DNA of 64,000 bases, from NCBI GenBank assembly GCA_016935735.1, contig JAFGQK010000174.1, positions 10,386-74,385 of the forward strand, read 5' to 3'. Position numbers and translations under genes: made by a program. Positions 993 to 37,177 of the stretch are shown one piece after another. Position 1 is the first letter of the stretch. The number at the start of each line of letters is the position of its first letter. The notes below the pieces were generated by a model that was not told where the DNA came from, made no database searches, and was given only the letters and a program-made list of their open reading frames with translations. The DNA comes from Spirochaetales bacterium. GTDB taxonomy: Bacteria > Spirochaetota > Spirochaetia > SZUA-6 > JAFGRV01.

Positions 993-3900
993 TTACAGCT
1001 TCTTCAGTTTGAATAATGTCAGTATATGAAACAATGCGGCATGAAGAAGGAGAACTGCCAGATTATACCAGATTGTCCTGAAAACGAAACATCCCCATAT
1101 CTTATCGTGTGCAGGAAAGATATTGACATCCGTTACCCAGTCTGTAATTCCCGCCAGATCCCTTCTTTTAAGCATTTTAAGCCATTCAACGGTTCCTGCA
1201 TCATAAAAGTCTTTATGCACCGCCTCGTTCACTTCATAATCCAGGTATTCGGTGTAGTACCCGTTCGGTCCTGCCTTAATAAATATTTCTTTAATCTCCT
1301 CCAACTCTGTCGCAGATAATCCCTTTTTTAATTCATAAACGTTCTTCATATCATCGATCGCATAGTAGTTCTTTATCGTCTCCTTAAGTTCGGGATAATC
1401 TTTTTCCAGTTCCTTTTCAATACGATCTTCAAATTCCTTCACAGATATTTTAGGGGGAAGAGGATCCTTTACCCTGGATTTGAGTTGTGCAATCGGGGTG
1501 TAGATTATTTCATTGCTGTCCCATTGCCCCTTTTCATATTCCTGTCTGATAAGCATGATACGATCCGTATCCGTTACCTGGTAGAGAGGGTTGAAGTATT
1601 CACTTCCGGCAAGAAGCCCTTCATATGACCACCGTGCAAAGGTAATATCCGAATAGACCGGGACTACCCTGTTCATCACCTTTCCCATATCGGTAAACTG
1701 GACAAACATACCCCCGAATATGATCTGGGGTATGATGATGAGCGGGATAATATTAAAAGCAGCCAGGCCGGAGCGGAGGAGGGAGGATACGAGTATTCCC
1801 AGGGCAAAAGCGGCATACGTGGTGACAAATCCCATAAGGATAAAATAAAGGTAAAAATTTCCCATTGGAAGATGACTCAATTCCGGCGGGGGAAACACCG
1901 GTATTTTAAGGATAACAAATCCCAGTGACACAAAAACCACTACCTGGAGGAATGCGAAAAGTGAAAACGTAATCGACTTGGAAATAAGATACTGCCATGG
2001 TTTTATGTCCACAATCTTTTCCCGGATTAAAATGGGCCTGTCTTTAATGACTTCATTTACACTCGCCATAAGACCGAAAAAAATAAAAATAATGGAAGAA
2101 AGAAAGAGGTATTTGGTAAACTGGGTATTGGCAAAGAACATATAAGGGGATGTCCCCCCCTTGAGCAGGAAACTCAGGATAAGCCCCAGGATAAACGGTA
2201 CCAGGAAGGTCATGATCATATTTGTCCTGTCGTTGAGTTTTTCCACAAAATTACGCCGGAATAATGAGATGAGGATTTTTAGCCTGGTAAAAATCGTTCT
2301 CTTTTTTGCAGGGGGTAGTTCTTTTGTAACTACCTGTTCTGCCTGATCTTCCTGTTCTTCCGCTGTTGTTATTTTGGAAAGGTAAAGTTGTTTCCAGTAA
2401 TCGGGATCATATCGCCGGTGGGGAAGAAGTATTTGCCTGGGTTTACGAAATAACGTACGGATAATCTTTTCGAACCCTTTGCCCCAATCCTGTTTTCTCG
2501 TATAGAGGGGGAGCCCGTCTTTTCCCAGTTCCTTTTTTTCAAGTACATTGAATATGATTTCGGGGTTTACATTCCCGCAGGACGGACATTCGATAAAATC
2601 GTCCCGTAACGGGAAGAATTTCTTAAAGTACCGGATCGCTTTCAAACTGTTACCGTAATATGCACATTTCCCCCCGACATCCAGGAGCAGAAGCTTGTCA
2701 AATTTTTTGTAGATATCCGATCCGGGTTGGTGGATGATGACGAATACAATCTTTCCCCTTTTTGAAAGGCGTGAAAGAAGGCTTATAATCATTTCCGAAT
2801 CTTTGGAAGAAAGCCCGGATGTCGGTTCATCCAGGAAAAAGAGATCCGGGTCGGCCAGGAGTTCCAGTCCGATGTTGAGTCGCTTCCTCTGTCCCCCGCT
2901 TAACACCTTCTGCACGGGATTCCCCACTTTCAGATTCTTCTTGTCCAGCAGTCCTATATCTTTCAGCACGCTTTCGATCAGGAAATTGATTTCCTTTTTG
3001 CTTCTCCCGGGCATTCGTATTTTTGCAGCATAATACAGGTTCTGGTACACGGTTAGATTCTCGAATAAAAGATCATCCTGGGGCACATACCCGATGTAAT
3101 TTCTTACTTTATCGAAATGTTCATAAAAATCCGCCCCATTCACCAACACCTGCCCGCTGTATGGTTTCAGGTATCCGAGAAGGAGCTGGAGAAGTGTTGA
3201 TTTCCCTGCCCCGCTTGCACCCATTATCCCGATCAATTCACCGCTTTTTGCTTCAAAGGAAAGATCATCAATCCCGATTTTGTTATTTTTGAATCTATAC
3301 GTAAGATGATCCACCGTAAACCGGGAAAAATGGATAATCGATGTAATGATTTTTCCTGTATCGGTATGAAAGAGCACATGGTTTTTCCCGATAATAAGGG
3401 TTGAATCCTTTTTTATTTCTTTCTTCTCTCCCTGGTGTATTTCTTTTCCATTCAGGTATATATTATACGGCAACTTTTCTGTATGAAGGGCGAAATGTAC
3501 CCCGTCTTTCACCTTGTGTAATTTGACAGGGATATAGAGTTCTTTTTCGTTCTCGTCATCAATATAGATATCGGCGAGTTGATCCTGGTCACTGATAATG
3601 AGGACATCTTTTTCAGGGGTAAACTCCTTGAGAGTATACACATCCCGGCTTTCCGTTTTAAGAATTTCCCGCAGCGGGATCTTGAAGCTGTTTTGAAGTA
3701 CAACTGAATCCGATACATTGATAAAAGAAAAAGTATCGATCTCCTGCTGATTTACCTTTATTGAACAATTTCTCTCTGTATTTTTATATAACCGGATAAT
3801 ATTCTGTGAGACATCGATCCTGAAATCTGCCCGGGCAAAATCGATCTTTTTCACCATTTTCTGGTTTTCATAGGTAAGATACATCTGCTTGCTGTACCCG

Positions 3901-4565
3901 TTCTGTTTTAGTTTAAAAAACAGGGCAATGTCACTGGTATGGATATCCTTCTTGTTTACGGAAATAACCTTTTTCCCTTCCAGGGGGACAATCTGCCCCG
4001 TATGGATGAGTTGTTCATCAACAAACATCGAAGCTTCGGGATGTTTGTTCACCAGGTAATAATGACCGTGAATCTCAAAGATTTCACAACTGCAATTATT
4101 GTATACAATATCAACGCTTTGCGGATCTTCACCGATAGCGATCTTCCTGTTTATATTGTCTGCAAAATCAAAATCATACATATCCACAAGCAGTGATTTG
4201 ATAAGGTCTGCATCTTCTTCCTGAATGGCAAAGAAACCGCACACATTATCGAAAATTAACAGTTCGCTTTCCGTAATACCGTCTGCCCCGAGGAGTTCGT
4301 ATATCTTCATGATTAACGATATCTTCCCCATATAATCCTTGCCATAGTCCCTGTTCACATTGTCCAGAATTGATTCAAGGACCGGTTTTTCTTTGAGTGC
4401 CTTGAGGAATCCCTGGAACACATCCTCGGCAACATTTTTCGGGTAGTACTGCTTGATGTATTGAGAAAAGAAATCGATCTCCTGTTCAGACACCTTGCCA
4501 TCCGCCTGGATGACATAAGCCATAAGATTGACCAGGTTCAGGTTTTCAGGTTTTATATCCGGCAT
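993..4565 (-). CDS. Multidomain ABC transporter: N-terminal TerB-like domain, two FHA-like domains, an ABC ATPase (Walker A, signature motif) and a C-terminal ABC-2 type permease.
   Basis: A Walker A motif (GASGAGKST) and the LSGGQRKR ABC signature are present, followed by 'LFFLDEPTSGLSS' as the Walker B. About six C-terminal TM helices are predicted. The N-terminus has a 'LMAYVIQADGKVSEQEIDFF' TerB/DjlA-N-like segment. Two segments resemble FHA domains ('IAIGEDPQSVDIV...HYYLVN...' and 'LIIGKNHVLF'). The probable true start is the ATG at 4565 (protein MPDIKPEN), which is preceded by a GGGGAG ribosome-binding site. The ORF-track start at 4643 is upstream of that and in frame. Confidence 0.8.
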   Translation of the reverse strand: MPDIKPENLNLVNLMAYVIQADGKVSEQEIDFFSQYIKQYYPKNVAEDVFQGFLKALKEKPVLESILDNVNRDYGKDYMGKISLIMKIYELLGADGITESELLIFDNVCGFFAIQEEDADLIKSLLVDMYDFDFADNINRKIAIGEDPQSVDIVYNNCSCEIFEIHGHYYLVNKHPEASMFVDEQLIHTGQIVPLEGKKVISVNKKDIHTSDIALFFKLKQNGYSKQMYLTYENQKMVKKIDFARADFRIDVSQNIIRLYKNTERNCSIKVNQQEIDTFSFINVSDSVVLQNSFKIPLREILKTESRDVYTLKEFTPEKDVLIISDQDQLADIYIDDENEKELYIPVKLHKVKDGVHFALHTEKLPYNIYLNGKEIHQGEKKEIKKDSTLIIGKNHVLFHTDTGKIITSIIHFSRFTVDHLTYRFKNNKIGIDDLSFEAKSGELIGIMGASGAGKSTLLQLLLGYLKPYSGQVLVNGADFYEHFDKVRNYIGYVPQDDLLFENLTVYQNLYYAAKIRMPGRSKKEINFLIESVLKDIGLLDKKNLKVGNPVQKVLSGGQRKRLNIGLELLADPDLFFLDEPTSGLSSKDSEMIISLLSRLSKRGKIVFVIIHQPGSDIYKKFDKLLLLDVGGKCAYYGNSLKAIRYFKKFFPLRDDFIECPSCGNVNPEIIFNVLEKKELGKDGLPLYTRKQDWGKGFEKIIRTLFRKPRQILLPHRRYDPDYWKQLYLSKITTAEEQEDQAEQVVTKELPPAKKRTIFTRLKILISLFRRNFVEKLNDRTNMIMTFLVPFILGLILSFLLKGGTSPYMFFANTQFTKYLFLSSIIFIFFGLMASVNEVIKDRPILIREKIVDIKPWQYLISKSITFSLFAFLQVVVFVSLGFVILKIPVFPPPELSHLPMGNFYLYFILMGFVTTYAAFALGILVSSLLRSGLAAFNIIPLIIIPQIIFGGMFVQFTDMGKVMNRVVPVYSDITFARWSYEGLLAGSEYFNPLYQVTDTDRIMLIRQEYEKGQWDSNEIIYTPIAQLKSRVKDPLPPKISVKEFEDRIEKELEKDYPELKETIKNYYAIDDMKNVYELKKGLSATELEEIKEIFIKAGPNGYYTEYLDYEVNEAVHKDFYDAGTVEWLKMLKRRDLAGITDWVTDVNIFPAHDKIWGCFVFRTIWYNLAVLLLHAALFHILTLFKLKKL

Positions 4566-4597
4566 GGTTTTTCTCCCCTGTAATAAGTGGATTTGTA

Positions 4598-4695
4598 TTG
4601 CGTTGGCAGCCAGGTTACATAGATTAGAATAAATAATAAGCACCTGGATAGTTTGTTTATTGAATTGTGGGCCTGGCCAACGTCATGATATGAAG
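4598..4695 (+). repeat. Copy A of the conserved intergenic element family (core only, lacking the long palindrome).
   Basis: The sequence 'attgcgTTGGCAGCCAGGTTAcatag...caCCTGGATAg...ttgTGGGCctgGCCaaCGTcATGatatg' aligns with the copies at 9262-9352, 21624-21767 and 30532-30674. Confidence 0.5.
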
Positions 4696-8900: not shown

Positions 8901-9257
8901 CTCTTTGAGCCTCTTTTCAACCACAGCCTGGGTAGCAATGCCTGCATGGTCTGTACCGGGCATCCAGAGGGTATTGTCCCCCATCATCCTGTGCCAGCGT
9001 ATAAGGAGATCCTGCATACCATTGTCCATGGCATGCCCCATATGAAGTGCACCGGTGACATTGGGAAGAGGCATCATTACTACATAGCGTTTATCCCGCT
9101 TTCGTTCATCCGGTACAGCGTGAAATGCGCCTCCCTTTAACCAGAGTTTATAAATTTTTCCCTCCACTTCGGAAGGTGTATACGTTTTCGATAATTCGGC
9201 CTTTTCACTCATCTTCTTATACCTGACTTTCCTTATTATGCTATTCTGATTTACCAT
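5922..9257 (-). CDS. valS: Valine--tRNA ligase.
   Basis: The HIGH-type motif 'HMGHA' and the KMSKS motif 'KMSKSKGN' are present. The N-terminus 'TYTPSEVEGKIYKLWLKGGAFHA' is typical of ValRS, and the C-terminus is a coiled coil. An alternative start is M at 9212 (MSEKAEL...). Confidence 0.9.
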   Translation of the reverse strand: MVNQNSIIRKVRYKKMSEKAELSKTYTPSEVEGKIYKLWLKGGAFHAVPDERKRDKRYVVMMPLPNVTGALHMGHAMDNGMQDLLIRWHRMMGDNTLWMPGTDHAGIATQAVVEKRLKELENITRHEIGREGLVKRIWKWKDMYQARIIEQQQRMGCSCDWDRQRFTMDNVCARAVRYAFFRMFRDGLIYRGKRLVNWDVFLHTTISDDEMYYETVDGHFWHLIYPVIDPGESGPGAVIVATTRPETMLGDTAVAVHPEPEGALNHKIRETEHEFSHAGPGSKAELEKELEGLYERKKTILPGLLKLRDMAMAGKKVNLPLLNRPIPLILDEWAKPELGSGCVKITPAHDYNDYAVWMRHRDEIDIINILNEDGTLNENAGPYTGMDRFAAREKVVQDMDKQKLLNRIEDRTVEIGHSDRSKTPIEPFLSDQWFIKMGDVDDGIIMGRGTDKEFKSPGLVQAAMDAIIDGRVTIHPERYKKTYLDWLSEKRDWPISRQLWWGHRIPVWSKTFEKDQLSSEALFAELICLCERQKEAGREFVISINTIQTEKKVLVTGAGLERFNLPVWQEDEECRVDICLLSDAEDIIKVLESHGYEQDTDVLDTWFSSALWPFSTLGWPEPETAEVDEGQTPLGKPRDGIEDCLSYYYPGSCLITGRDIITLWVARMVLAGLYCLGDIPFTDVFIHANILDGKGVRMSKSKGNGIDPVDIINAYGTDAIRYVLSDMQTGTQDIRLPVTAICPECGHHNDLGGTKHGGNIFCYVCNACKKEFDVLGTLPHLKQAKLTSERFEIGRAFCTKLWNSARFAFMNMHNVLATERTHNDLAFEDLWILDCLSNTIREVNRGLENYNPSFALNAVRDFFWSSFCDWYVELIKPRLGNRNEQSGGVVTQVLSFCLDQILRLLHPFIPFITEHLWQILGEYAPVRGLGNLAAVTVTDQLINAPWPVPLPGLENETIHAEFALLQDITRAVREIRSERNVPPKEKLVVTVSPVDRIKEFISRKAYIVEELGGIGELTVKTGAKRIPGSAYKLVAECQIFVHDVIDDEEEKKRLNDALSRVEKEIEASEKKLNNENFVNRAPADVVQKQRDRLAEHRANRERILASLKELE

Positions 9258-9261
9258 CCTG

Positions 9262-9352
9262 CTAAAATAACAAGGTTAAATCAAAATGGCTGAACGCTGG
9301 CCACCGGGTTAAATAAACCGGGTTATGGGTGTAACCATCGTTATGATATGGT
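9262..9352 (+). repeat. Copy B of the conserved intergenic element family, carrying the core plus a half-palindrome remnant.
   Basis: The sequence 'taaaataacaaggttaaatcaaaatggctgAACGCTGGCCACCGGGTTAaataAACCGGGTTAtgggtgtaaccatCGTTATGatatgg' is homologous to copies C and D, including 'aaaataacaag' from the palindrome arm. Confidence 0.5.
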
Positions 9353-9538: not shown

Positions 9539-9931
9539 ATGAAACAAATTAAAATCCTTATCATTGTTATGAGTTTTTTGTTATTAACTTCTGTTCTTTG
9601 TGCAGATACAATGAACTGGATAATACACATAATGGCCGGTATGAAGTTTACCGTGCATTTTAACGAAAAGGATTCCAAATACAAGGGATTATTAAAAAAA
9701 GAACCCCTCGATTTTTTACGAAGCGGGGAATCATATGATGTTATTTATAAAAACGGTGAATTCTTGTGCAGCGGGTATCATAATAAAAGGAAGCAAAAGG
9801 GTACATGGGGCGATTCAAGGGGAAATCCCCTGAACAACCAGATTTCTCTCTGGGGCAGGATATTTGCATTTGACGGGGAAGGAAATATCTATGATGCCGA
9901 GCATGGTCTTGTCGGACACTTAACAAGATAA
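9539..9931 (+). CDS. Hypothetical small secreted protein.
   Basis: The N-terminal signal peptide is 'MKQIKILIIVMSFLLLTSVLCA'. I recognise no conserved domain. Confidence 0.45.
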   Translation: MKQIKILIIVMSFLLLTSVLCADTMNWIIHIMAGMKFTVHFNEKDSKYKGLLKKEPLDFLRSGESYDVIYKNGEFLCSGYHNKRKQKGTWGDSRGNPLNNQISLWGRIFAFDGEGNIYDAEHGLVGHLTR

Positions 9932-10049: not shown

Positions 10050-11096
10050 ATGTATAACATAGCGGTAATCGGCGGGGACGGCACAGGCCCGGAAGTAGTC
10101 CGGGAAGGAATAAAGGTATTAAAAAGTGCGGGTGATAAGTTCACTATCAAGTTTGATTTTCACTATTATGATTTTGGCGGGGACAGGTATCTCAAGACAG
10201 GGGATACACTTCCTGATACTGCAATAACTGAGTTAAAGCAATATGATGCAATCTACCTGGGCGCTATCGGACATCCGGATGTGAAGCCGGGTATCCTTGA
10301 AACCGGGATACTTCTTAAACTCCGCTTTACCCTGGATCAGTACATTAACTTAAGGCCGATAAAGCTGTATCCGAATGTGGAAACACCCCTGGCAAACAAA
10401 GGACCGGAAGACATAGATTTTATTGTCGTGCGGGAGAATACGGAAGGACTCTACTGTAGTATCGGGGGTTTTTTAAAAAAAGGAACACCGGACGAAGTGG
10501 CAACCCAGGAAATGGTCAATACAAGGAAAGGGGTTGAACGCTGTATCCGTTATGCTTTTGAAGCCACCCGGAAGCGGAATAAAAAGAAGACCCTTACCCT
10601 CTGTGCAAAGACAAATGTCCTTACCTATGCCCATGATCTCTGGTGGCGGGTGTTTATGGAAGTATCAAAAGAATATACGGACATTAAACCTGAATATGCT
10701 CATGTTGATGCAACCACCATGTGGATGGTCAAGAATCCCGAGTGGTTCGATGTCATCGTGACAACAAATATGTTCGGGGACATTATTACCGATCTCGGCG
10801 CCATGATCCAGGGAGGAATGGGAATTGCCGCGGGCGGGAACATCAATCCGGAAGGTGTTTCAATGTTTGAACCCATCGGCGGATCCGCACCAAAGTATAC
10901 AGGGAAAAATATTATCAATCCCCTTGCTGCCATCTTTGCCGCCCAGATGATGCTCGATGTACTTGGAGAAGAACAGGCAGCACGTGCAATAGAAGAATCA
11001 GCAGTAAAGACTATAAGCAGGATGAAAAGCATGGCAGCAGGGAAAATGGGATTTACCACCACAGAGATCGGGGATATGGTTGCAGATGGTGTATGA
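10050..11096 (+). CDS. 3-isopropylmalate dehydrogenase family (LeuB/tartrate/isocitrate DH-like) NAD-dependent decarboxylating dehydrogenase.
   Basis: The protein starts 'MYNIAVIGGDGTGPEVV', is 348 aa long, and has the typical Asp-rich active-site motif 'GDIITDLGAMIQGGMG'. Its stop overlaps the next gene's start by 4 nt (ATGA). Confidence 0.8.
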   Translation: MYNIAVIGGDGTGPEVVREGIKVLKSAGDKFTIKFDFHYYDFGGDRYLKTGDTLPDTAITELKQYDAIYLGAIGHPDVKPGILETGILLKLRFTLDQYINLRPIKLYPNVETPLANKGPEDIDFIVVRENTEGLYCSIGGFLKKGTPDEVATQEMVNTRKGVERCIRYAFEATRKRNKKKTLTLCAKTNVLTYAHDLWWRVFMEVSKEYTDIKPEYAHVDATTMWMVKNPEWFDVIVTTNMFGDIITDLGAMIQGGMGIAAGGNINPEGVSMFEPIGGSAPKYTGKNIINPLAAIFAAQMMLDVLGEEQAARAIEESAVKTISRMKSMAAGKMGFTTTEIGDMVADGV

Positions 11097-17444: not shown

Positions 17445-18099
17445 TTTTCTGCTTTATTTTATATACCCATTTAACACCTTACCCTTTTTTAAATTGGCGT
17501 TTTCTTGGGTAATATTGTACCCGGGTCTTATCAATAATATCACTCATGATTTTATGCCCCTGACATCATTTTTAAGACTTCCGGTTCCTCAATTTTTGTT
17601 CCGGGCATTCTCTTTTATCCTTCAAGTCTTTTCTGTTTATTTCTTCCAATTCTTGCTTTTTGTATCTTTCATTAGAAAATCCTTAACAAAATTATGCTAT
17701 ACATTAGTATAGTATAATTTTGTTATATGTCAATAGTTTTTAAATAGTTTCTTAAATAGTTCTTTAAAAATGAAACAACCTTTGCAGCATAATTCCCGCC
17801 TGTTCCTTATATAGGATTCTTTATTGCAGGAAATAAAACTGGATTTCCTCATCTTTAAGGTTATTCTCTCTTTTATCCATAAAATAATCCTGGATAAAAG
17901 ACTGCTAAAAAATGACAAACAGTATTGTAATTTTCAGAAAGATGTATTAGTGTATTTCGAATTTGCTTGCTTTTTCGTTAAAGGGATGTACGCAACAGGG
18001 TGAGACATAGCGAGGGCGCGGTTAATAGTGGCTGTTACAGGAAAAACCACTCAATTTAGACAGTAAATAATAATTGAATACGATTTAATAGAGTGAAGA

Positions 18100-21543: not shown

Positions 21544-21623
21544 ATCCGGTTTATCTGTCCTGAAAATTTCTCCCGGAATAAACAAAATCAAGATTATCCT
21601 GTGTGGACACGGTTGATACATAT

Positions 21624-21767
21624 GCTATTTTGACTTAAAATCTTGTTAAAATAACAAGATTTCAAGCAAAATAGATAAACGTTGGCCGCCAGGTTAATGA
21701 GACCAGCATAATTAAAAGAATCTGGATAGCTTGTTAATTGGGTTGTGGGCTTAAGCCTTCGTTATGG
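21624..21767 (+). repeat. Copy C of the conserved intergenic element family (degenerate palindrome plus core).
   Basis: 'ctattttgacttaaaatcttgttaaaataacaagatttcaagcaaaatag' is followed by 'ataaACGTTGGCCGCCAGGTTAatg...atCTGGATAgc...ttgTGGGCTTAAGCCttCGTTATGg'. It is about 85% identical to the copy at 30532-30674. Confidence 0.6.
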
Positions 21768-21795: not shown

Positions 21796-23238
21796 ATGGA
21801 GAATAAATTTCCCCGGCAGCCGGTATTGTTTGTGGATGATGAAGAAGATATGCTGGACACATATGAAATGGCACTTAAGATCGATGGATTTAATAATTTT
21901 ATTTTTTTAAGTGACAGCAGAAAAGTTGCACCTGTTCTCGAGGAAGTCGAGATCTCTGTTGCTGTTATCGATCTTTTTATGCCCCATATCCGGGGAGAAG
22001 AACTGCTCAAACAATTGAAAGAAACACACCCGGAAATTCCGATTATTGTGGTAACAGGGACAAATGAGGTATGCACGGCAGTGGATTGCATGAAAGCAGG
22101 TGCTTTCGATTATATGGTGAAACCCATTGAAAATAGCCGCCTGACATCCAGCATACGAAGAGCCCTGGAAATACGTGAACTGAAAGATGAGGTCAATAAC
22201 CTTAAATTAAAAATGCTTTCACAGGAGCTACAGCACCCCGGTGTATTCAACGGGATCATTACGGTGAATTCAAAAATGAAAGCGATATTCAAATATATGG
22301 AAGCAATTGCCATTACCCCGAAACCCGTTCTCATAACCGGCGAAAGCGGTGTGGGAAAAGAATTGATTGCCCAGGCAATACATAAACTCAGTAATCGAAA
22401 TGGTGATTTTATTGCAGTGAATGTCGGCGGGCTGGATGATACGATGTTTTCCGATACGCTTTTCGGACATAAAAAGGGCGCTTTTACCGGGGCAGACAGT
22501 TCACGTCCCGGGCTTATCGAACAGGCAGCCGGGGGTACACTTTTCCTGGACGAGATCGGTGATATTGATAATGTTTCCCAGGTCAAGCTTTTAAGGCTTA
22601 TTCAGAACAGGGAATATTATCCCCTTGGTTCGGATGTGGTAAAAAGAACCGATACACGGATTGTGACCGCAACAAACTCTTTACTGGAAGCAAAACAGAA
22701 AAAGGGTCTTTTCCGTACCGATCTTTATTTCAGACTTCTTACTCATTATATAGAAATACCCCCCTTAAAGGAAAGAAGAGAGGATATCCCTTATCTGGTA
22801 AACCATTTTATAAAACAGGCTTGTGAATCAATAAGGAAAAAATCCCCGGTTGTCCCGGCAGAACTCTATACTCTCCTGTCTGCATATTATTTTCCCGGTA
22901 ATGTCCGTGAGTTACAATCGTTGATATACGATGCGGTAAGCCAGTGTGAGACACCCGTTCTTTCGCTTTCCGTGTTCAGGGAGTATTTTAAAAGAAGAAG
23001 AAAATCCATTCATGAGACGGAAGAAACCCTGCCCCGGGATTCATTCTCACTTTCCTATTCAGGCAGGTTCCCGACGATAGGGGAGGTTGAAGACTATTTA
23101 ATACCGGAAGCGATGAGGATGGCAGAAGGGAATCAATCAATTGCCGCTGTTTTCCTTGGTATCAGTCAGTCCACTTTAAGCAGACGTCTTCAGCAGAATC
23201 AGGAGAAAAATAAGGAAGAAGAAGCACCCCCCGCTTAA
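21796..23238 (+). CDS. Sigma54-dependent Fis-family response regulator (NtrC-like enhancer-binding protein).
   Basis: A receiver domain ('VAVIDLFMPH'), an AAA+ domain ('GESGVGKE') with an intact GAFTGA motif, and a C-terminal HTH are present. The start at 21796 (MENKFPRQ...) is preferred over 21745 because it follows an AAGGGAGG ribosome-binding site. Confidence 0.85.
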   Translation: MENKFPRQPVLFVDDEEDMLDTYEMALKIDGFNNFIFLSDSRKVAPVLEEVEISVAVIDLFMPHIRGEELLKQLKETHPEIPIIVVTGTNEVCTAVDCMKAGAFDYMVKPIENSRLTSSIRRALEIRELKDEVNNLKLKMLSQELQHPGVFNGIITVNSKMKAIFKYMEAIAITPKPVLITGESGVGKELIAQAIHKLSNRNGDFIAVNVGGLDDTMFSDTLFGHKKGAFTGADSSRPGLIEQAAGGTLFLDEIGDIDNVSQVKLLRLIQNREYYPLGSDVVKRTDTRIVTATNSLLEAKQKKGLFRTDLYFRLLTHYIEIPPLKERREDIPYLVNHFIKQACESIRKKSPVVPAELYTLLSAYYFPGNVRELQSLIYDAVSQCETPVLSLSVFREYFKRRRKSIHETEETLPRDSFSLSYSGRFPTIGEVEDYLIPEAMRMAEGNQSIAAVFLGISQSTLSRRLQQNQEKNKEEEAPPA

Positions 23239-27973: not shown

Positions 27974-30265
27974 TTATTTTGCATGTTTTATGAGAGTAGA
28001 CACCGGAACAATGGAATACCCGCCATTAAGCAGGGCATTGATAAGGATATCGAGCTTTTTAAAGAGATAATCTTCCCTTCTCCCCCCGGGAAGACCCACA
28101 TTAACCGGGATAATTGATCCTGGCTTTTTTTCTGTCATGATTCTATTGATGAGTTCTGCAGAAGAAAGGTATATACCCCTGGTAATATCAATTTCATTCT
28201 CTGTCACCCAGTCCATTGTATCGACATCCTTGCCAATGTAGGTATAATTCATCTCCCTTGAGACTTCAATAATCTGGGAATTTACAAAGTAATAGGGGGC
28301 GTGCCAGTAAAGGGAAAGATCATACCCTGTTGCTGCAAAATATTCATCCTCGTTTATCCCGAGTCCCTTTTTAATGAACTCCCTGTCAAGGCTGTATTTC
28401 GAATCTGTCATATTAAAGTAAGCATAAAACAGGGACCCTGTTTCATGGCCTGAATTTGCTATTTCCTTTATTCCGCCAGGGTAACGGGCAATCGCTTCCC
28501 CATTAATAAAAAAGGTTGCTTTTATATGGTACTCCGAGAGTATATTCAGGATCGCAGGAAGCCCCTGGATCGAGTTAATGACATTAAAAACAATGGCGAC
28601 TTCACGTCTTCTTAAACGGGAACCGTGGTTAAATACATCAAAACTTACCGGATCATCCTTTTCCGGGAATGGTTCATACTGAATCGTCTTGTTTTCTTCA
28701 AAAAGGGGAAAGGTACCGTATGTTTCTGCTTCTATTTTCCTTACCATAATCATGTTTTTGAATATCCCGTCTGCCGATTCTGCAAAATACACCCGGTAGG
28801 ATTGGGATTCATTCGATGGTTCCCTGATCTGGAAAAGGGATGTACTGTTCCATGTTGATTCCCCGGCATTTGTTGTATAAACCTTGTTTGCCATTTTCAT
28901 AAGGATTGATTGTTCATCCTGTGAAAAACCCCATTCACCTGCTTTTGAAAGTGCGAGAAGGGTTGTTTTTTTAAGGGTAAAATTGTAGATAATAGTGGAA
29001 TGCCCCCCTGCAATAATCAGTTCCTGGTTATTCTTCCAGATCGCTTGAAGGGGCTGGGCATGCAGTACCGTTTCAAGACGCTCCCAGCTCATATAATTAC
29101 GGAGTTCCACCCTGTCTTTTTTTATGAGAATAACAGAGCGTTCATCCGGGGAAAGTACCATGTCTTTCACATCTTCATCATCCGTTTTTATGAATGCGGA
29201 AAAAGCGGTATTCTCTTTTACTGCAATCCGGAAAAGATTTATTTTCATCTGTCCGGAGACAATCTTCCGTGCCAAAACGGTAATCTGGTCTCCTTTTGAC
29301 CAGACAATGCGGGTAATTTCCGAATTTTTCGGGAGATAGAGGTAGGGGAGTGACTGGACATCCCCGACAGAGGTATAGTCATCCGATCTTAGAAAATAGA
29401 GAAAGAGGTTTCTCCCTTCCTTGCTTAAGAGTATCTTTTCCCCGTCCGGTGCGATCCAGAAATTATCGAAGTTCGGATCGAACTCGAAAGGAATTTTCCC
29501 CGATATTGTCCCTATCCGTAATATATCTTTATAAAATGACCGGGTAAAAAATTCCTTGCTCGAGATCTTCTGTACAAAGGTTCCTGCAATATAGTACAGG
29601 GAACCTGTGCCGGACCACCTCGCATTCCGGAGAATCCCTTTGCCGATTATTCTCATACTTTCTGTCAGGACCCTGTTTTCTTCCAGGTGGTCCATGGAAA
29701 AGTAATGAATATTCCCCTTTTTACTGTATACAAAATACCGTGAATCAGAAGACCAGAGGGCAGGGGGGTCTTCAAAGCTTATTTCGACATCCGTTGAAAT
29801 AAGGTGTTCTTCCATTTTATCGAGATTGCAGAGCATGAGATCCCCGTATGCATTCCGGGGATTTGAAAAGTAAACAAGATACCTCCCGTCCGGTGAACTC
29901 TGGAGCCGGGTGAGTTTCCCCTGTTTCAGAATATTATCCTGAATAAAAGACGAAAAAAGCTCAAAAGTGGCAACAGAACCGTTTTTCGTATGAATGCGAA
30001 ACACACCATATCTGTTCTGGATCTGGACCTCGTCCGAATCTTTTAAAAGCATAATCTGCTCGGGGAAATAGGTAAGCTGGTGAAGTTCGCCGGTATCAAG
30101 ATGAGTGAAAAAAAGGGTTTCATATTCTCCATAACCCGGGAAATCCGCAGACAGCTTGAAAAAAAGGATGTTGGACCGGGATATATCCATCCCGGAAAAT
30201 GTCACCTCCGGATAGGCTTTCAGGAGGAAAAATAGCAAGACTATGGCACTTATCGTTCTTTTCAC
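27974..30265 (-). CDS. Secreted polysaccharide deacetylase (CE4/NodB homology domain) with an N-terminal beta-propeller-like region.
   Basis: A signal peptide and a C-terminal NodB-like region ('HIKATFFINGEAIARYPGG', 'GHETGSLFYAYF') are present. Confidence 0.6.
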   Translation of the reverse strand: MKRTISAIVLLFFLLKAYPEVTFSGMDISRSNILFFKLSADFPGYGEYETLFFTHLDTGELHQLTYFPEQIMLLKDSDEVQIQNRYGVFRIHTKNGSVATFELFSSFIQDNILKQGKLTRLQSSPDGRYLVYFSNPRNAYGDLMLCNLDKMEEHLISTDVEISFEDPPALWSSDSRYFVYSKKGNIHYFSMDHLEENRVLTESMRIIGKGILRNARWSGTGSLYYIAGTFVQKISSKEFFTRSFYKDILRIGTISGKIPFEFDPNFDNFWIAPDGEKILLSKEGRNLFLYFLRSDDYTSVGDVQSLPYLYLPKNSEITRIVWSKGDQITVLARKIVSGQMKINLFRIAVKENTAFSAFIKTDDEDVKDMVLSPDERSVILIKKDRVELRNYMSWERLETVLHAQPLQAIWKNNQELIIAGGHSTIIYNFTLKKTTLLALSKAGEWGFSQDEQSILMKMANKVYTTNAGESTWNSTSLFQIREPSNESQSYRVYFAESADGIFKNMIMVRKIEAETYGTFPLFEENKTIQYEPFPEKDDPVSFDVFNHGSRLRRREVAIVFNVINSIQGLPAILNILSEYHIKATFFINGEAIARYPGGIKEIANSGHETGSLFYAYFNMTDSKYSLDREFIKKGLGINEDEYFAATGYDLSLYWHAPYYFVNSQIIEVSREMNYTYIGKDVDTMDWVTENEIDITRGIYLSSAELINRIMTEKKPGSIIPVNVGLPGGRREDYLFKKLDILINALLNGGYSIVPVSTLIKHAK

Positions 30266-30531
30266 CTGTACATCACCTCATGAACATCCCGGTTCCCGGG
30301 AAAAAACTATATTCCTTATGTGTAATAATTAATGTTCGGCAGATCAAGGAGTGGAGAAAAACAGGAAATGTCCATTGTTTTAAAATATAGAGCACTTTTC
30401 TGTTTTTTCAAGGTTTTTTGAGGAGAAAGGAATGTGTTTTGAATACGGTAATAAAAATATGTAGCTTTAATCAACTATATCCAGCATATATTAGTTGATT
30501 CTATAATTTTATTGTCCAGGAATCTCGATTA

Positions 30532-30674
30532 TGCTATTTTGTTAAAATCTTGTTAAAATAACAAGATTTTAACAAAATAGATAAACGTTGGCCGCCAGGT
30601 TAAATAGACCAGTATCATTAAAAGAAACCTGGATAACTCATTATTCGGGTTGTGGGCTTAAGCCTTCGTTATGG
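30532..30674 (+). repeat. Copy D of the conserved intergenic element family, with a 47-bp perfect palindrome followed by the core.
   Basis: Positions 30534-30580, 'ctattttgttaaaatcttgtt-aaa-aacaagattttaacaaaatag', form a perfect 22-bp-arm inverted repeat. The core 'ataaACGTTGGCCGCCAGGTTAaat...aaCCTGGATAac...ttgTGGGCTTAAGCCttCGTTATGg' follows. Confidence 0.6.
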
Positions 30675-30771
30675 AATTACGTGAAGGAATTCGGGAATTT
30701 ACATTACTTGACTTAAGACAATTCATTATTTAAGATAATTCAACATTTAATAATATAATAAGGAGTTTCAA

Positions 30772-31290
30772 GTGAAAAGAAAAATTATGTGTTGTATTTT
30801 ATTCCTGTTATGGGCTGTTGGATTTTTATACACCCAGGCCAGCAATACAATCGACCCGTATGAGATGACAGCAATCAGTGTATCCGGGAGAAAAGTATAT
30901 GTAACAGAACCAATATTAAAAGTTTTGGAATACGATATTGTGTATACCTTAAAGAATGCTCTCTGGGATGGATCGGTATTTACTGCTCACCGTAATGGTT
31001 TATTTGTCGTAACAGTGAGTTTTGTGAAAGACGCATACTATCATAACGGAACCCAGGATGATGTTTATGTTACAGTATATAAAGAAGATATATCCGGGGT
31101 TCGGACATCAATGGGCTTGGCCTGGAGCGGTGAGGGAACCGGGAAACGGGGAACGGGTACTTATACCGTTGTGGCGGAACTCCTGGAAGGAGAAAAAATT
31201 CTTACTGTTGCGCATGCTGCAAAGGGCGATATATGGAATTTAGAGCTTTTTAATTTAACCATCTATTCCCTGCCAAATTATGTATATTAA
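30772..31290 (+). CDS. Secreted hypothetical protein with a possible C1q/TNF-like jelly-roll domain.
   Basis: The signal peptide is 'MKRKIMCCILFLLWAVGFLYTQA'. The beta-rich C-terminal part ('FTAHRNGLFVVTVSF...VYVTVYK...GDIWNLELFNLTIYSL') resembles C1q-like domains. This is weak, pattern-only evidence. Confidence 0.35.
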   Translation: MKRKIMCCILFLLWAVGFLYTQASNTIDPYEMTAISVSGRKVYVTEPILKVLEYDIVYTLKNALWDGSVFTAHRNGLFVVTVSFVKDAYYHNGTQDDVYVTVYKEDISGVRTSMGLAWSGEGTGKRGTGTYTVVAELLEGEKILTVAHAAKGDIWNLELFNLTIYSLPNYVY

Positions 31291-31301
31291 AAGGGGGGTA
31301 T

Positions 31302-32933
31302 GTGCCGGATCAGGAAATGGTGAACGAATATAAAACATCAATTGAACTCGCATTAAGGGAACGGGTAAAGGAACTGAAATGTCTTTATATCATTAGTTCC
31401 GAAATTGAAACAGCAGAAAACCTGGAACGGGCTTTACGGAATTCCCTACAACACCTTGTGGCAGGATTCCAGTTCCCGGAAATTGCAACAGCCAATATTA
31501 CCCTGGATAATCTTTGCTTTGGTGATTGTGATACAGGAAATAAAGACAGGGATTTATGTTTAGAAGAAAATATTTTCGTAAATAAACAAAAAAGGGGTAC
31601 GGTATCCGTTTTTTACCAGAGAAAAGAAGAATTCTTACAGGAAGAAAGAAAATTACTCAAAGAAATCTCCAGCATGATAGCCCGGGCAGTTGAAAAGCAG
31701 GATTTAAAAAACAGACTTAAAGAAAATATCGAAAAGCTGGAGGTCCTTGTAAAGGAAAAAACACTGGAAGTGGAGGAATCCAACAGAAGAAACAAAGCTT
31801 TGCAGGAACTTACGGAAGCCCTTGACCGGAGCAAGAAAGAACTCCAGACCTTTTTTGCTGCTATTACGGATAGTATTGTTGTTATCGACCAGGCATATAC
31901 CATTTCCATTTCCAATAAATTATATTTTCAAAAAGGAGACAAATGCCATAAGAAATTGTTCGGGATGGATGCTGTGTGTCCTTTTTGCCCTGCAGAAAGG
32001 GCTTTTAAGGATGCATGTTCACTTAGCATAGAAACAAAAGTAGAAAACAACTATTATCTCCTCGAAGTATACCCGATTATAAATAAATCGGGTAAAGTTA
32101 TCCGTGTTCTGGAAAAATGTAGTAATATTACCAAGGAAAAGCAAATTGAATTTCAACTTGTTCAATCATATAAACTGGCATCCCTGGGCAAGCTTGTTGC
32201 AGGGGTTGCCCATGAAATAAACAACCCGAATACCTTTATCAGGGGAAATCTGAAAATCATTAAAGAAGCCCTTTCCGATATTATTCCTATCCTGGATCAT
32301 TATAATAATGGAAAAGAGAGGGACGTTACCATAGCCAGGCTTCCTTTTACTGTGTTCAAAGAGAATATCCCGGTATTGATCGATGATATGATAAACGGGG
32401 TAAACAGGATTAAAAAGATTATCGACGGCCTCAGAAACTTTGCACGAAAAAATGAAGGATTTTTAGAGGATGATATTGATATTAACAGCATTGTATATAA
32501 TTGTCTGCGATTAATAGAAAACCAGATCAGAAAGAGTGCAGAAGTAAAACTGGAACTTGCACAGGCAATTCCCGTTTTTAAGGGCAATTTCCAGAAACTC
32601 GAACAGGTACTTGTCAATATGATCATCAATGCCTCCCAGGCGATAAGCGATCAACAGGGGATTATTGCCATTAAAACGCAGTATGATGAAAAAAAGAATG
32701 AAATGATTTTATCCATCAAAGACAATGGTACAGGAATTGATGAAAGTACGTTAAAATATATATTCGATCCTTTTTTTACAACAAAAAGGGGCAAAGGGGG
32801 CACAGGACTTGGGCTTTCAATTTCCTATGGCATTATAAAAGAACATAATGGAAGAATAGAAGTGGAATCGCAAAAAGGAAAAGGAACAACATTCACTATT
32901 TTTGTTCCGGTTACACAAGGTACTATAAAATGA
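31302..32933 (+). CDS. Cytoplasmic sensor histidine kinase (coiled-coil, PAS, HisKA, HATPase_c). No TM segment is evident.
   Basis: The H-box 'HEINNPNTFIRGN', N-box 'NMIINASQA', G1 'DNGTGI' and G2 'GTGLGLSISYGII' are present. Its stop overlaps the next gene's start. Confidence 0.85.
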   Translation: MPDQEMVNEYKTSIELALRERVKELKCLYIISSEIETAENLERALRNSLQHLVAGFQFPEIATANITLDNLCFGDCDTGNKDRDLCLEENIFVNKQKRGTVSVFYQRKEEFLQEERKLLKEISSMIARAVEKQDLKNRLKENIEKLEVLVKEKTLEVEESNRRNKALQELTEALDRSKKELQTFFAAITDSIVVIDQAYTISISNKLYFQKGDKCHKKLFGMDAVCPFCPAERAFKDACSLSIETKVENNYYLLEVYPIINKSGKVIRVLEKCSNITKEKQIEFQLVQSYKLASLGKLVAGVAHEINNPNTFIRGNLKIIKEALSDIIPILDHYNNGKERDVTIARLPFTVFKENIPVLIDDMINGVNRIKKIIDGLRNFARKNEGFLEDDIDINSIVYNCLRLIENQIRKSAEVKLELAQAIPVFKGNFQKLEQVLVNMIINASQAISDQQGIIAIKTQYDEKKNEMILSIKDNGTGIDESTLKYIFDPFFTTKRGKGGTGLGLSISYGIIKEHNGRIEVESQKGKGTTFTIFVPVTQGTIK

Positions 32934-34312
32934 AAAAAATACTGGTTATTGATGATGAACAGGCAATTCTGAATTATTTAAAAATTTTTTTATTACAATC
33001 CGGGAAATTCGATATTCACCTGCTCAAAGATAGTACGAAAGCATACAAGTTACTTAAAAATGAAAACTTTGATATCTTACTCCTTGATATGGATATGCCC
33101 AAAGTTACAGGGCTGGATATCCTGTCATTTATAAACGAAAATTCCATCAATATTATTACCATTGTTCTTACCGGGGTGGAGGATATCGATCTTGCCATAA
33201 AGGCTATGAAACTTAAAACATTTGATTACCTGCTAAAACCTGTGCAGGAAGAAAAATTCACTGATATCCTGGATATGGCAATCGATAAGGCCGAGTTTAA
33301 AAAAATGAAAGATGTTTCCAATACATCGCTTTCCATGGAAAGTCTTATTCATAAACATGCTTTTTCGAATATTATTACCTGTAATGAGGAAATGCTTAAA
33401 ATATTTCATTTTGTCGAAAAGTTTGCACTTACAGACAACAGTATATTGATATGGGGGGAAAGCGGGACAGGAAAAGAACTCATAGCCCGGGCGATACATG
33501 AAATAAGCCGGAGAAAAACGAACAAGTTCATCGCAGTGAATGCAGGTTCTTTTGCTAATGAACTGTTTTTGTCCGAATTCTTCGGTCATGAAAAAGGTGC
33601 TTTTACCGGTGCAATAAAGGATAAAAGGGGGTTTATCGAAGAAGCGGCCGGGGGTACATTGTTCCTGGATGAAATCGGGGAATTATCCCTGCCCATACAG
33701 GTAAAACTGCTCCGAGTCCTGCAGGAAGAAGAGTTTTACCGGCTGGGATCAACGGAAAACAGGAAAGCGAATGTAAGGATAATTGCAGCAACCAACAAGA
33801 ACTTGTTTGAAGAAATCAACAATGGAAATTTCAGAAAAGATCTTTTCTTCCGGCTGAATATCAATTCAATATATCTCCCCCCATTACGAGAAAGAAAAGA
33901 AGATATTACTTTACTGGCTTACTATTTCCTTGAAAAATTCAATAAAAAATATGATAAAACTATAACCACTATTTCAAGTGATGTCCTTGACCTGTTAAAA
34001 ACATATGCTTACCCGGGAAACACAAGGGAATTAATGAATATTATCAACAGTGCCATTATTATAGAGACAGGTGAGGTCCTTGAGAAAAAATCACTCCCTC
34101 ATTATTTCCTGGAAAACACCTATCCGGCGGATGTTTATCCGGCGGATAAAAACAACCGGAATAATTCCCTTAAAACCCTGGAAGAAGTGGAAAAAGAGTA
34201 TATAAAAAAGGTGCTTATAAAAACGGATATGAATAAGACAAAAGCTGCAAAGATACTCGGGATTTCAAGGGTAAGCTTGATTTCCAGGATAAAGAAGTAC
34301 GAACTTGATTGA
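32930..34312 (+). CDS. Sigma54-dependent Fis-family response regulator (NtrC-like).
   Basis: A receiver domain ('ILLLDMDMPK'), 'GESGTGKE', a GAFTGA motif and a C-terminal HTH ('KTKAAKILGISRVSL') are present. Confidence 0.9.
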   Translation: MKKILVIDDEQAILNYLKIFLLQSGKFDIHLLKDSTKAYKLLKNENFDILLLDMDMPKVTGLDILSFINENSINIITIVLTGVEDIDLAIKAMKLKTFDYLLKPVQEEKFTDILDMAIDKAEFKKMKDVSNTSLSMESLIHKHAFSNIITCNEEMLKIFHFVEKFALTDNSILIWGESGTGKELIARAIHEISRRKTNKFIAVNAGSFANELFLSEFFGHEKGAFTGAIKDKRGFIEEAAGGTLFLDEIGELSLPIQVKLLRVLQEEEFYRLGSTENRKANVRIIAATNKNLFEEINNGNFRKDLFFRLNINSIYLPPLRERKEDITLLAYYFLEKFNKKYDKTITTISSDVLDLLKTYAYPGNTRELMNIINSAIIIETGEVLEKKSLPHYFLENTYPADVYPADKNNRNNSLKTLEEVEKEYIKKVLIKTDMNKTKAAKILGISRVSLISRIKKYELD

Positions 34313-35680: not shown

Positions 35681-37177
35681 ATGAAAAGTTTAAGTTTAAA
35701 ATTAAGTGTCTTATATATATTTCTCGCTATCCTTAATATCTCGTTTTTTACTATTATTATATTTGAAAACCAGATCGATCTGATAACAGAAACATCAAAA
35801 TATCAAACTATTGATTTTGCAAATAAAATCTACTACCAATTCGAAGATCTGAAACAGGAAATAAGTGAAAGGGAAGAACCCCTCACAGAAGAAAAACTTT
35901 ATATCGATATCCGTAATGCCCTGGAAGATATTCTTTATGAGTATATTATATTCAATCAATCAGGATTGGTTCTCTATCAATCAAGTCCGGCATTCTCACT
36001 CAAAGACAAGTACAGAACAAATGGCCAGAAGGCACTGACAAAGAGCGATTTCCTGGGAGAACCTTATACCTTTGATGTTGATGAGGAAGCCCGGGAGATA
36101 CTTTTCTATATCCCGATAAACTTCCCGATACAGAACATTGAACAACTGGTACTTCTTTTTAAACTCGGGATGAAGGATATTGATAAAAAACTCACTACCC
36201 TTTACTCCCTGGTTATTGTCATTATCGTGACTATTGCCCTTTTTCATATTATCTTTGGTTTTTTCCTTCACAGGATTGTGATATCACCAATAAAGACCCT
36301 GGCCTACACAAGTACCGAGATAAGCAAAGGGGATTTATCTGCCAGGGTAAAACTCAGGAAAAAGGATGAAATAGGCCGGCTTGGTGTTGCATTCAACAAT
36401 ATGGCAGATTCTGTGCAGGAGACCATTACAAAACTCGATGAACAAAACAAGCTTATGCGCTTTGAACTTGCCATGGCGAGTGCCGTTCAAAAATCCATTT
36501 ATCCTGCTATCCGTAAAACAAAGTACTTTGATGTTGCAATTTATCACAGACCATATATGGAAGTAAGCGGGGATTATCATAACATCTATCACCTGGGAGG
36601 GAACAAATACGGGATTCTCATTGCAGATGTTGCAGGTCATGGTGTTGCCGCTGCCCTTATTACCATGCTTATAAAGGAAAGGTTCGAAGAACTTGCAGGA
36701 AAATTTGCAGATCCGAAGGAACTCCTCCAGCGGATCAATATAATATTCAAAGATTTAATGGTCGACTATGAGAAATATTTTACGGCGTTTTATCTGATTA
36801 TCAATAAAAATACCCAGGCGCTTTTCTCCAATGCCGCACACCCGAAGGCAATTCTCCTCAGGGAAAGCAATGTGTATCATCTTTCTGTAAAAGGGATACT
36901 GATAGGAGTTTCCCAGATGATGGAGGACGCATTTGAAACAAAACGAATCGCTTTAAAAACGGGGGATAAAATTATTCTTTATTCAGACGGGATAACAGAA
37001 GCGATGAATACACGGAATGAAGAATACGGGATAAAGCGGCTTACCCTGGTATCACAGAAAAATGCCCCGAAAACATGCGATGAGATAGTAAAAGCAATCA
37101 CCGCCCACTTCCACGACTTTACACAGGGAGCAAAACAGTCGGATGATGAAACCCTTCTGGTAATCGAGATTAGGTAA
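35681..37177 (+). CDS. Membrane-anchored HAMP-domain PP2C/SpoIIE-family serine phosphatase (RsbU-like).
   Basis: The N-terminal TM region is followed by a HAMP domain ('IKTLAYTSTEISKGDLSARVKL...LGVAFNNMADSV') and a PP2C domain ('EVSGDYHNI...ADVAGHGVAAAL'). Confidence 0.8.
   Translation: MKSLSLKLSVLYIFLAILNISFFTIIIFENQIDLITETSKYQTIDFANKIYYQFEDLKQEISEREEPLTEEKLYIDIRNALEDILYEYIIFNQSGLVLYQSSPAFSLKDKYRTNGQKALTKSDFLGEPYTFDVDEEAREILFYIPINFPIQNIEQLVLLFKLGMKDIDKKLTTLYSLVIVIIVTIALFHIIFGFFLHRIVISPIKTLAYTSTEISKGDLSARVKLRKKDEIGRLGVAFNNMADSVQETITKLDEQNKLMRFELAMASAVQKSIYPAIRKTKYFDVAIYHRPYMEVSGDYHNIYHLGGNKYGILIADVAGHGVAAALITMLIKERFEELAGKFADPKELLQRINIIFKDLMVDYEKYFTAFYLIINKNTQALFSNAAHPKAILLRESNVYHLSVKGILIGVSQMMEDAFETKRIALKTGDKIILYSDGITEAMNTRNEEYGIKRLTLVSQKNAPKTCDEIVKAITAHFHDFTQGAKQSDDETLLVIEIR

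Follow-up and report, generated by a model that had tools for sequence, protein, structure and literature searches.

Most of what is known about C1q-type domains comes from animal immunity and the biology of synapses; bacterial examples are those of spore surfaces and of the tail fibres of injection systems. Within the Pfam family PF00386, which comprises C1q, C1QL, the cerebellins, caprin-2 and adiponectin, the nearest comparison for the protein described here is with the invertebrate 'secreted globular-head-only' C1q proteins. This protein is encoded in a 64,000-nucleotide chromosomal stretch of a Spirochaetales metagenome-assembled genome (contig JAFGQK010000174.1; the whole stretch is hereafter called the window). 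Its gene is the first of three that lie head to tail, the second and third encoding a histidine kinase and a sigma-54 activator, and a perfect palindrome is located upstream. In contrast to the PF00386 proteins, the window protein is bacterial, falls below the Pfam model and has its own motifs (TVSFVKD and AWSGxGxGxRGTG), both of which are invariant in its family. The reading that we favour, and hold to be probable, is that two separate functional units, the exported C1q-like protein and a kinase‒activator pair, have been joined in this lineage, probably on one transcript, with a dispersed repeat lying upstream.

Among the C1q/TNF-like binding domains of bacteria and phages, those of the Bacillus exosporium proteins BclA and ExsFA and those borne by tail fibres of extracellular contractile injection systems (PMC12923769) lend themselves to comparison. 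Unlike these, the window domain stands by itself: it lacks a collagen-like stalk, a fibre shaft and an anchor domain, and it is encoded outside any spore, phage or injection-system locus; the surrounding genes have housekeeping functions, among them those for ValRS, DNA polymerase I, ArgC and a Mur ligase. The two regulatory genes resemble the NtrB/NtrC and AtoS/AtoC systems in their general layout. The kinase combines a PAS-like domain with HisKA and HATPase_c, the activator combines a receiver domain (REC) with an AAA+ domain bearing the GAFTGA loop and a Fis-type helix-turn-helix (HTH), and the genes are adjacent and overlapping. Unlike those systems, the sensor part of the window kinase is made up of a domain with the motif RERVKELxCLY, an extended coiled coil and a PAS-like domain with four cysteines, and the surroundings of the pair contain neither glnA nor ato nor any other recognisable target operon preceded by a sigma-54 promoter. 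The upstream repeat is similar to REP/BIME, ERIC, Correia-type and MITE-like elements in its length of about 100–160 nucleotides (nt), its intergenic position, its several copies within 64 kb, its strong hairpin and the variation of its copies by indels and partial deletions. It differs from them in that no terminal inverted repeats or target-site duplications are definable, the four copies share the same strand, a transposase or RAYT-type gene was not noticed close to the window copies, and it is not assigned to any named family.

The three open reading frames (ORFs) were confirmed on the + strand in the ORF list of the window, at precisely the coordinates given and in the order described by the initial annotation, which was made from the letters of the DNA. 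The features of the locus are as follows:

30708-30736, + strand, candidate sigma-70-type promoter TTGACT-17-TAAGAT, a consensus match only (9/12)
30760-30765, + strand, ribosome-binding site AAGGAG of the C1q-like gene, as read from the sequence
30772-31290, + strand, C1q-like gene, 172 amino acids (aa), GTG start
31291-31301, + strand, intercistronic spacer of 11 nt from the C1q-like gene to the kinase gene, holding the kinase ribosome-binding site AAGGGGGG
31302-32933, + strand, histidine kinase gene, 543 aa, GTG start preceded by AAGGGGGG
32930-34312, + strand, sigma-54 activator gene, 460 aa, ATG start

With only 11 nt, the spacer leaves no room for a terminator or a promoter, and the start of the activator gene overlaps the kinase stop by 4 nt (ATGA). 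Neither a terminator-like site nor a consensus sigma-70 promoter was found on the + strand between 30772 and 31302, the C1q-like gene included. Co-transcription of the three genes, as supposed by the initial annotation, is therefore still plausible, given the gaps of 11 nt and −4 nt and the absence of a terminator or a consensus promoter between the genes. The candidate promoter is located 3′ of the repeat copy that precedes the operon, 36 nt ahead of the start codon of the C1q-like gene. With a second candidate, TTAAGA-18-TATAAT at 30730-30759, the ribosome-binding site would have no space.

The 172-aa protein is 100% identical to the NCBI entry 'hypothetical protein JXB88_12595 [Spirochaetales bacterium]'. 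Its N-terminus, consisting of a basic MKRK followed by a hydrophobic run (the maximal 19-residue Kyte‒Doolittle window is 1.98, at residue 5), is predicted to be a standard Sec signal, with a signal peptide of approximately residues 1–23 and a putative cleavage site between MKRKIMCCILFLLWAVGFLYTQA and the following serine (TQA/S). Attachment as a lipoprotein via Cys7 or Cys8 was rejected, since these cysteines are too near the N-terminus for a lipobox and are not present in the homologues. The myxobacterial relatives of the protein carry lipoprotein-type signal peptides.

The protein itself matches no Pfam or NCBIfam model, no C1q match appears at E ≤ 0.1, and the gathering score of PF00386 (23.7 bits) is not reached. 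A search of 5.8 billion proteins returned five close relatives with 63–82% identity. Six relatives at 40–46% identity do match PF00386 (best E 1.1e-10, precomputed and re-verified), and further relatives score 29–63 bits against this model. When a profile of the twelve-sequence family was compared with the PDB, cerebellin-1, caprin-2 and the complement C1q chains were retrieved, with E values of 8.7e-12 for the Cbln1 triple-domain chain, 4.4e-5 for caprin-2 C1q (over 125 residues) and 5.6e-5 for C1q A/C/B. In the AlphaFold model (predicted local distance difference test, pLDDT, 85.6), an N-terminal helix corresponding to the signal peptide is followed by a short disordered linker, and the chain is all-beta after residue 34. 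The jelly-roll domain covers approximately residues 32–168 and shows a ten-strand fold that can be superimposed on gC1q, the best Foldseek matches being C1QL2 and the C1q domain of caprin-2 with template-modelling (TM) scores of 0.76–0.79, normalised to the target. The initial annotation had described a signal-peptide-bearing, beta-rich protein with a possible C1q/TNF-like fold, and had named as its own refutation a structure prediction in which this fold is lacking. Hydrophobicity and the model agree with the former description; the latter test was passed, by profile, AlphaFold model and Foldseek, in favour of the fold, and the C1q/TNF-like fold of the 172-aa protein is thus established as far as prediction can go.

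An exhaustive profile search (1.84 billion proteins) gave 301 cluster representatives at E ≤ 0.001 and 51 at E ≤ 1e-30. Multi-domain or fused architectures were drawn from the relatives P0133–P0137, P0146, P0168, P0175 and P0240. Four of these (P0133, P0134, P0135 and P0137) have three tandem C1q-like domains in one chain, and the domain is also found in C-terminal position behind subtilases (S8), behind an M43 metallopeptidase and in a 2030-aa Laminin_G/phage-tail-collar protein. The tandem triples and the C-terminal fusions fit with a trimer-forming extracellular binding module. By analogy, the window protein probably forms trimers and attaches to a ligand in the envelope or outside the cell, in the manner of a lectin- or adhesin-like module. 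No compositional anomaly or sign of recent transfer was seen in its gene.

The kinase has no membrane-helix-like segment (maximal 19-residue Kyte‒Doolittle mean of 1.28), which bears out the earlier description of a kinase without transmembrane helix. Its Pfam domains are HisKA and HATPase_c only, and no Pfam PAS match was obtained at E ≤ 0.1. In the model of residues 1–290 (pLDDT 91.9), a small alpha/beta domain, a helix of ~75 residues and a PAS-like domain can be recognized. The kinase would consequently be laid out as an alpha/beta domain with the RERVKELxCLY motif (~1–112), a coiled coil (113–187), the PAS-like domain (188–276), HisKA with H304 and finally HATPase_c. The five-strand alpha/beta domain of residues 188–276 resembles CitA PASc, LOV and the PAS domain of Rv1364c (TM scores of 0.55–0.67, target-normalised), so that the PAS domain named by the initial annotation is present N-terminal to HisKA as a PAS-like fold, by structure and not by Pfam. 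A PDB sequence search with the sensor region was uninformative. Four cysteines in or beside this domain (C215, C226, C229 and C273) are invariant across 14 homologues, and this invariance suggests a metal, Fe-S (iron‒sulfur) or redox site. The N-terminal RERVKELxCLY domain was also found fused to regulators of the LuxR/GerE type (P0038, P0045 and P0058). The orthologous kinases (L021–L024) adjoin genes for glutamate dehydrogenase, a glutamate-synthase-like protein, an Fe-S/molybdopterin oxidoreductase or a PPDK_N protein; the window pair is followed by argC.

The activator displays the complete architecture of an NtrC-class enhancer-binding response regulator, as the initial annotation had it: Response_reg (E 4.1e-22), Sigma54_activat (6.9e-65), AAA_lid_14 (1.1e-23) and HTH_8 (5.3e-13), with the acceptor D53 in REC and the GAFTGA loop at residues 223–228 of the AAA+ domain. 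Both proteins stay below the NCBIfam equivalog cut-offs of the named systems. The kinase scores 222 bits against a cut-off of 646 for AtoS, 146 against 479 for ZraS and 100 against 240 for NtrB; the activator scores 393 against 714 for AtoC, 347 against 559 for NtrC and 319 against 760 for ZraR. An assignment as orthologues of AtoS/AtoC, NtrB/NtrC or ZraS/ZraR was therefore rejected. The genes named above as neighbours of the kinases give a weak hint of a link of the pair to nitrogen, glutamate or redox metabolism.

The order of C1q-like gene, kinase gene and activator gene was not found to recur in other genomes. A kinase‒activator pair lies downstream of none of the five close C1q-like loci and none of about twelve distant ones. 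Among the close loci, a gap of 484 nt followed by an unrelated secreted protein is seen in P0003, no downstream gene within 814 nt in P0005, and a convergent methyltransferase gene in P0004; in P0006 the contig stops 161 nt past the C1q-like gene, with a cellulase gene upstream. In P0002, the closest homologue (82%), a gene is located 144 nt downstream, and a fragment with the kinase N-terminus was not among the 120 of 193 kinase matches listed. The distant loci (Myxococcota, Flavobacteriaceae and Saprospiraceae) have no activator, and one of them has an unrelated kinase 4.5 kb off. Conversely, kinase (49–51% identity) and activator (66–69%) are adjacent in L022–L024 with no C1q-like gene. Such a gene is present at none of the four orthologous kinase loci, three of which keep the activator (the contig of L021 ends inside the kinase gene). 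Since the pair recurs without the C1q-like gene and the C1q-like homologues occur without the pair, the conserved unit, on the available data, is the kinase‒activator pair, and the C1q-like gene appears ahead of it only in this genome.

Periplasmic binding proteins act as co-sensors for some kinases, and one could imagine that the C1q-like protein is an accessory sensor which binds an external ligand and signals to the two-component pair. Gene adjacency is what speaks for this idea. The kinase, however, possesses no membrane or periplasmic segment by which such a signal could be received, the orthologous pairs lack any C1q-like partner, and C1q-like homologues occur without kinases. We consider this explanation hardly credible, the least probable of those weighed here.

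The palindrome that the initial annotation had placed upstream of the operon is a real and perfect dyad. Its arms, 30534-30555 and 30559-30580, are 22 nt long and 100% complementary with a 3-nt spacer, far beyond chance, and the RNA form of 30534-30580 has a folding energy of −29.7 kcal/mol (z −7.2). It is not specific to this operon, however, but makes up the 5′ part of a repeat of ~150 nt consisting of hairpin and core. A profile search with nhmmer found three full copies and one partial copy in the window, all on the + strand:

4599-4690, + strand, repeat copy c4, core only, without hairpin (E 5.1e-08)
9237-9352, + strand, repeat copy c1, degenerate hairpin and shortened core (E 6.3e-41)
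21620-21767, + strand, repeat copy c2, full length, hairpin and core (E 3.4e-58)
30523-30674, + strand, repeat copy c3, full length, with the perfect hairpin 30534-30580 (E 1.8e-58)

The core of c3 (30584-30674) begins with AACGTTGGCCGCCAGGTTAAATAGACC and ends with GGGCTTAAGCCTTCGTTATGG. With the core pattern AACGYTGGCCRCCRGGTTAAATARACC, matches were obtained at 9293, 21678 and 30584 where none would be expected, and the core as a whole is composed of AACGYTGGCCRCCRGGTTAAATARACC ... GGGCTTAAGCC TTCGTTATGG, the length of the repeat being ~100–155 nt. The copies c2 and c3 share 90% identity across 150 nt, and a C insertion in the left arm of c2 is paired by a G insertion in the right arm. As DNA, the hairpins of c3, c2 and c1 have energies of −20.5 (z −12.6), −15.0 (z −7.8) and −5.0 kcal/mol (z −1.5, decayed), respectively. 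A search with the arms, allowing ≤3 mismatches, found no other copy of the palindrome, a misleading result since the other copies differ by indels. No repeat copy was found in 25 fetched loci or in viral contigs.

Several roles for the palindrome and the repeat were tried and rejected. No conserved RNA fold was found in the repeat core, where the single-sequence folds differ from copy to copy and do not surpass those of shuffled sequences (z −0.1 to −2.2), and the RNAalifold consensus of the repeat reaches only −10.25 kcal/mol (covariation term +0.12). The whole window gave no Rfam 15 match at gathering score, and a limit of E ≤ 10 yielded nothing but spurious microRNA-hairpin matches well under the threshold. 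A structured RNA is thus unsupported by Rfam, RNAalifold and the core folds, and the hairpin alone is supported. An intrinsic terminator does not suit the palindrome either, as it has no U-tract on either strand and sits between divergent gene starts, nor does a role as conserved operator for either the C1q-like gene or the kinase pair, since neither the homologues nor the orthologous pairs are preceded by the palindrome. By default, we read the repeat as a lineage-specific intergenic element of the REP/MITE-like kind. A second, AT-rich palindrome lies at 17684-17725 (19-nt arms, 95% complementary); the 9-mer ATTTTGTTA, considered as a link between it and the palindrome at 30534, is a weak one: it occurs 6 times where 2.07 would be expected, and a count of 6 is reached in 4 of 100 shuffles.

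For sigma-54 promoters, a consensus pattern was scanned window-wide and a strict GG-N10-GC scan was added. The window-wide matches are at chance level (192 against 200.9 expected). Upstream of 30772, a −24/−12 site (−24 GG, −12 GC) is missing: within 30200-30800, the highest-scoring GG-N10-GC site reaches 6/12 and is located in the divergent deacetylase gene. Such a site was not found in the activator‒argC gap or near the orthologous pairs either. The best site of intergenic type in the window is GGGCAGGATATTTGCA at 9853-9868 (+), with 10/12. It is located 182 nt upstream of the gene at 10050, an Iso_dh-family gene that heads a glycosyltransferase/methyltransferase cluster, and inside the 3′ part of the ORF 9539-9931.

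AtoC and NtrC are examples of enhancer-binding proteins whose binding sites are inverted repeats. The initial annotation had seen in the locus a self-contained regulatory cassette, with the secreted protein as its possible regulated output. Spelled out, the palindrome would be the upstream binding site of the activator, which would drive the operon together with the C1q-like gene, so that the unit would be autoregulated. The gene order and tight spacing are as this proposal has them, the perfect 47-nt dyad stands 215 nt upstream of the C1q-like start, and the repeat core holds TTGGCCGCCAGGTTAAAT, which resembles the −24 half (TGGC) of a sigma-54 promoter. In this motif, however, the near-invariant −12 GC is replaced by AA (AC in c4), and its distance of ~33 nt from the dyad centre is too close for the usual DNA looping. 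With no GG-N10-GC site above 6/12 in the region, the operon does not show the promoter on which its own activator would act. Moreover, the repeat is also present at three other places, one of them between two − strand genes, no such dyad or motif is seen near the orthologous kinase‒activator pairs, and the linkage is missing at the five close C1q-like loci and the four orthologous kinase loci. Neither the cassette nor the secreted protein as its output could be upheld, and we regard this proposal as very improbable.

The window contains exactly two genes for sigma-54 activators, and each is located downstream of a full-length repeat copy in the same orientation. The second one is the following:

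21796-23238, + strand, activator gene with the order REC, Sigma54_activat, HTH_8, no adjacent kinase

Its product is only 37% identical to the activator encoded at 32930. The listed start of this gene is GTG 21745, and ATG 21796, with the ribosome-binding site GGGAGG, is the likelier one. From the end of c2 to ATG 21796 the distance is 29 nt, and from the end of c3 to GTG 30772 it is 98 nt. In a rough hypergeometric estimate, counted by hand and after the fact with three copies and ~35 transcription units, the chance that two of three full-length copies fall at the only two activator operons is ~0.005 (33/6545).

This arrangement raises another explanation, namely that the ~150-nt repeat is a shared cis-regulatory module, either a promoter/operator or a leader, by which both activator operons and hence the C1q-like gene would be commonly controlled. 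It would account for the position of both activator genes behind same-orientation copies and for the 90% identity of c2 and c3 in spite of the low identity of the two activators. The gap between c2 and ATG 21796 is, furthermore, too small for a promoter, so that this transcript must start in or before the repeat. On the other hand, the repeat has only four copies, and the association is a post hoc observation; c1 is followed by a small, unrelated ORF, and c4 is antisense between two − strand genes; the core has no conserved RNA fold, and no consensus promoter is conserved within the repeat. The identity of c2 and c3 is equally expected of a recently spread REP- or MITE-like repeat. We think this explanation unlikely, though it has more in its favour than the two discussed above. 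Somewhat more doubtful is its bolder version, in which the repeat would be an undescribed cis-regulatory module dedicated to the sigma-54 activator operons of this lineage, wiring both activators and the C1q-like protein into one cascade, perhaps through a non-canonical −24/−12-like promoter at TTGGCCGCCAGGTTAAAT or a common hairpin-binding factor.

We therefore return to the reading of two functional units joined in this lineage. All three genes would be transcribed from a sigma-70-type promoter just upstream of 30772. The first unit would be a Sec-exported, stand-alone globular C1q-domain protein, presumably serving as a lectin- or adhesin-like binding module. In the second unit, the soluble kinase would sense an intracellular signal, possibly of metal, Fe-S or redox nature, via its N-terminal alpha/beta domain and the four-cysteine PAS-like domain; it would phosphorylate the REC-AAA+-HTH_8 activator, by which sigma-54 promoters elsewhere in the genome would be switched on. 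The palindrome would then be no operon-private operator but the hairpin of a dispersed ~150-nt repeat.

Several points weigh against this reading. Co-transcription is deduced from gene spacing, and the trimer assembly and the ligand of the C1q-like protein are drawn from its relatives by analogy. A genome-encoded RpoN is not shown by the 64-kb window. Most of the close-homologue loci are short contigs, and P0002, the closest of them, was judged without its DNA. Finally, the position of both activators behind full-length repeats hints that the control of the operon may be less ordinary than proposed here.

The flanks of the operon and the surroundings of the other repeat copies complete the picture. 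The two flanking genes are:

27974-30265, − strand, 5′ flanking gene for a 763-aa secreted protein with a C-terminal polysaccharide deacetylase domain, divergent from the C1q-like gene and sharing its intergenic region
35681-37177, + strand, flanking gene for a HAMP-SpoIIE (PP2C) membrane phosphatase

Copy c1 lies between the probable ValRS start (ATG 9210-9212, − strand) and the secreted ORF 9539-9931 (+), and c4 between the − strand genes for an ABC transporter and a GNAT acetyltransferase. The ORF 9539-9931, downstream of c1, encodes 130 aa with a signal-peptide-like N-terminus and has no Pfam match. ValRS likely starts at its second Met (MSEKAELS...), 27 nt from the edge of c1, the mechanically assigned start being probably too long. 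The ABC-transporter ORF 993-4643 (−) may start at ~4566 behind GGGGAGA, which is a guess only, the ATG being in another frame.

Taken together, the parts of this locus belong to known kinds and are placed together in this lineage only, and the repeat is the sole unexplained item. In this case, tight gene spacing alone was no reliable sign of a functional cassette, and the lead that remains is the dispersed repeat in front of the two sigma-54 activator genes of the window. The kinase‒activator pair adds a four-cysteine PAS-like sensor, and the free, exported, single-domain C1q family, with its ~300 cluster representatives among 1.84 billion proteins, offers a simple bacterial model of this fold as a binding module.

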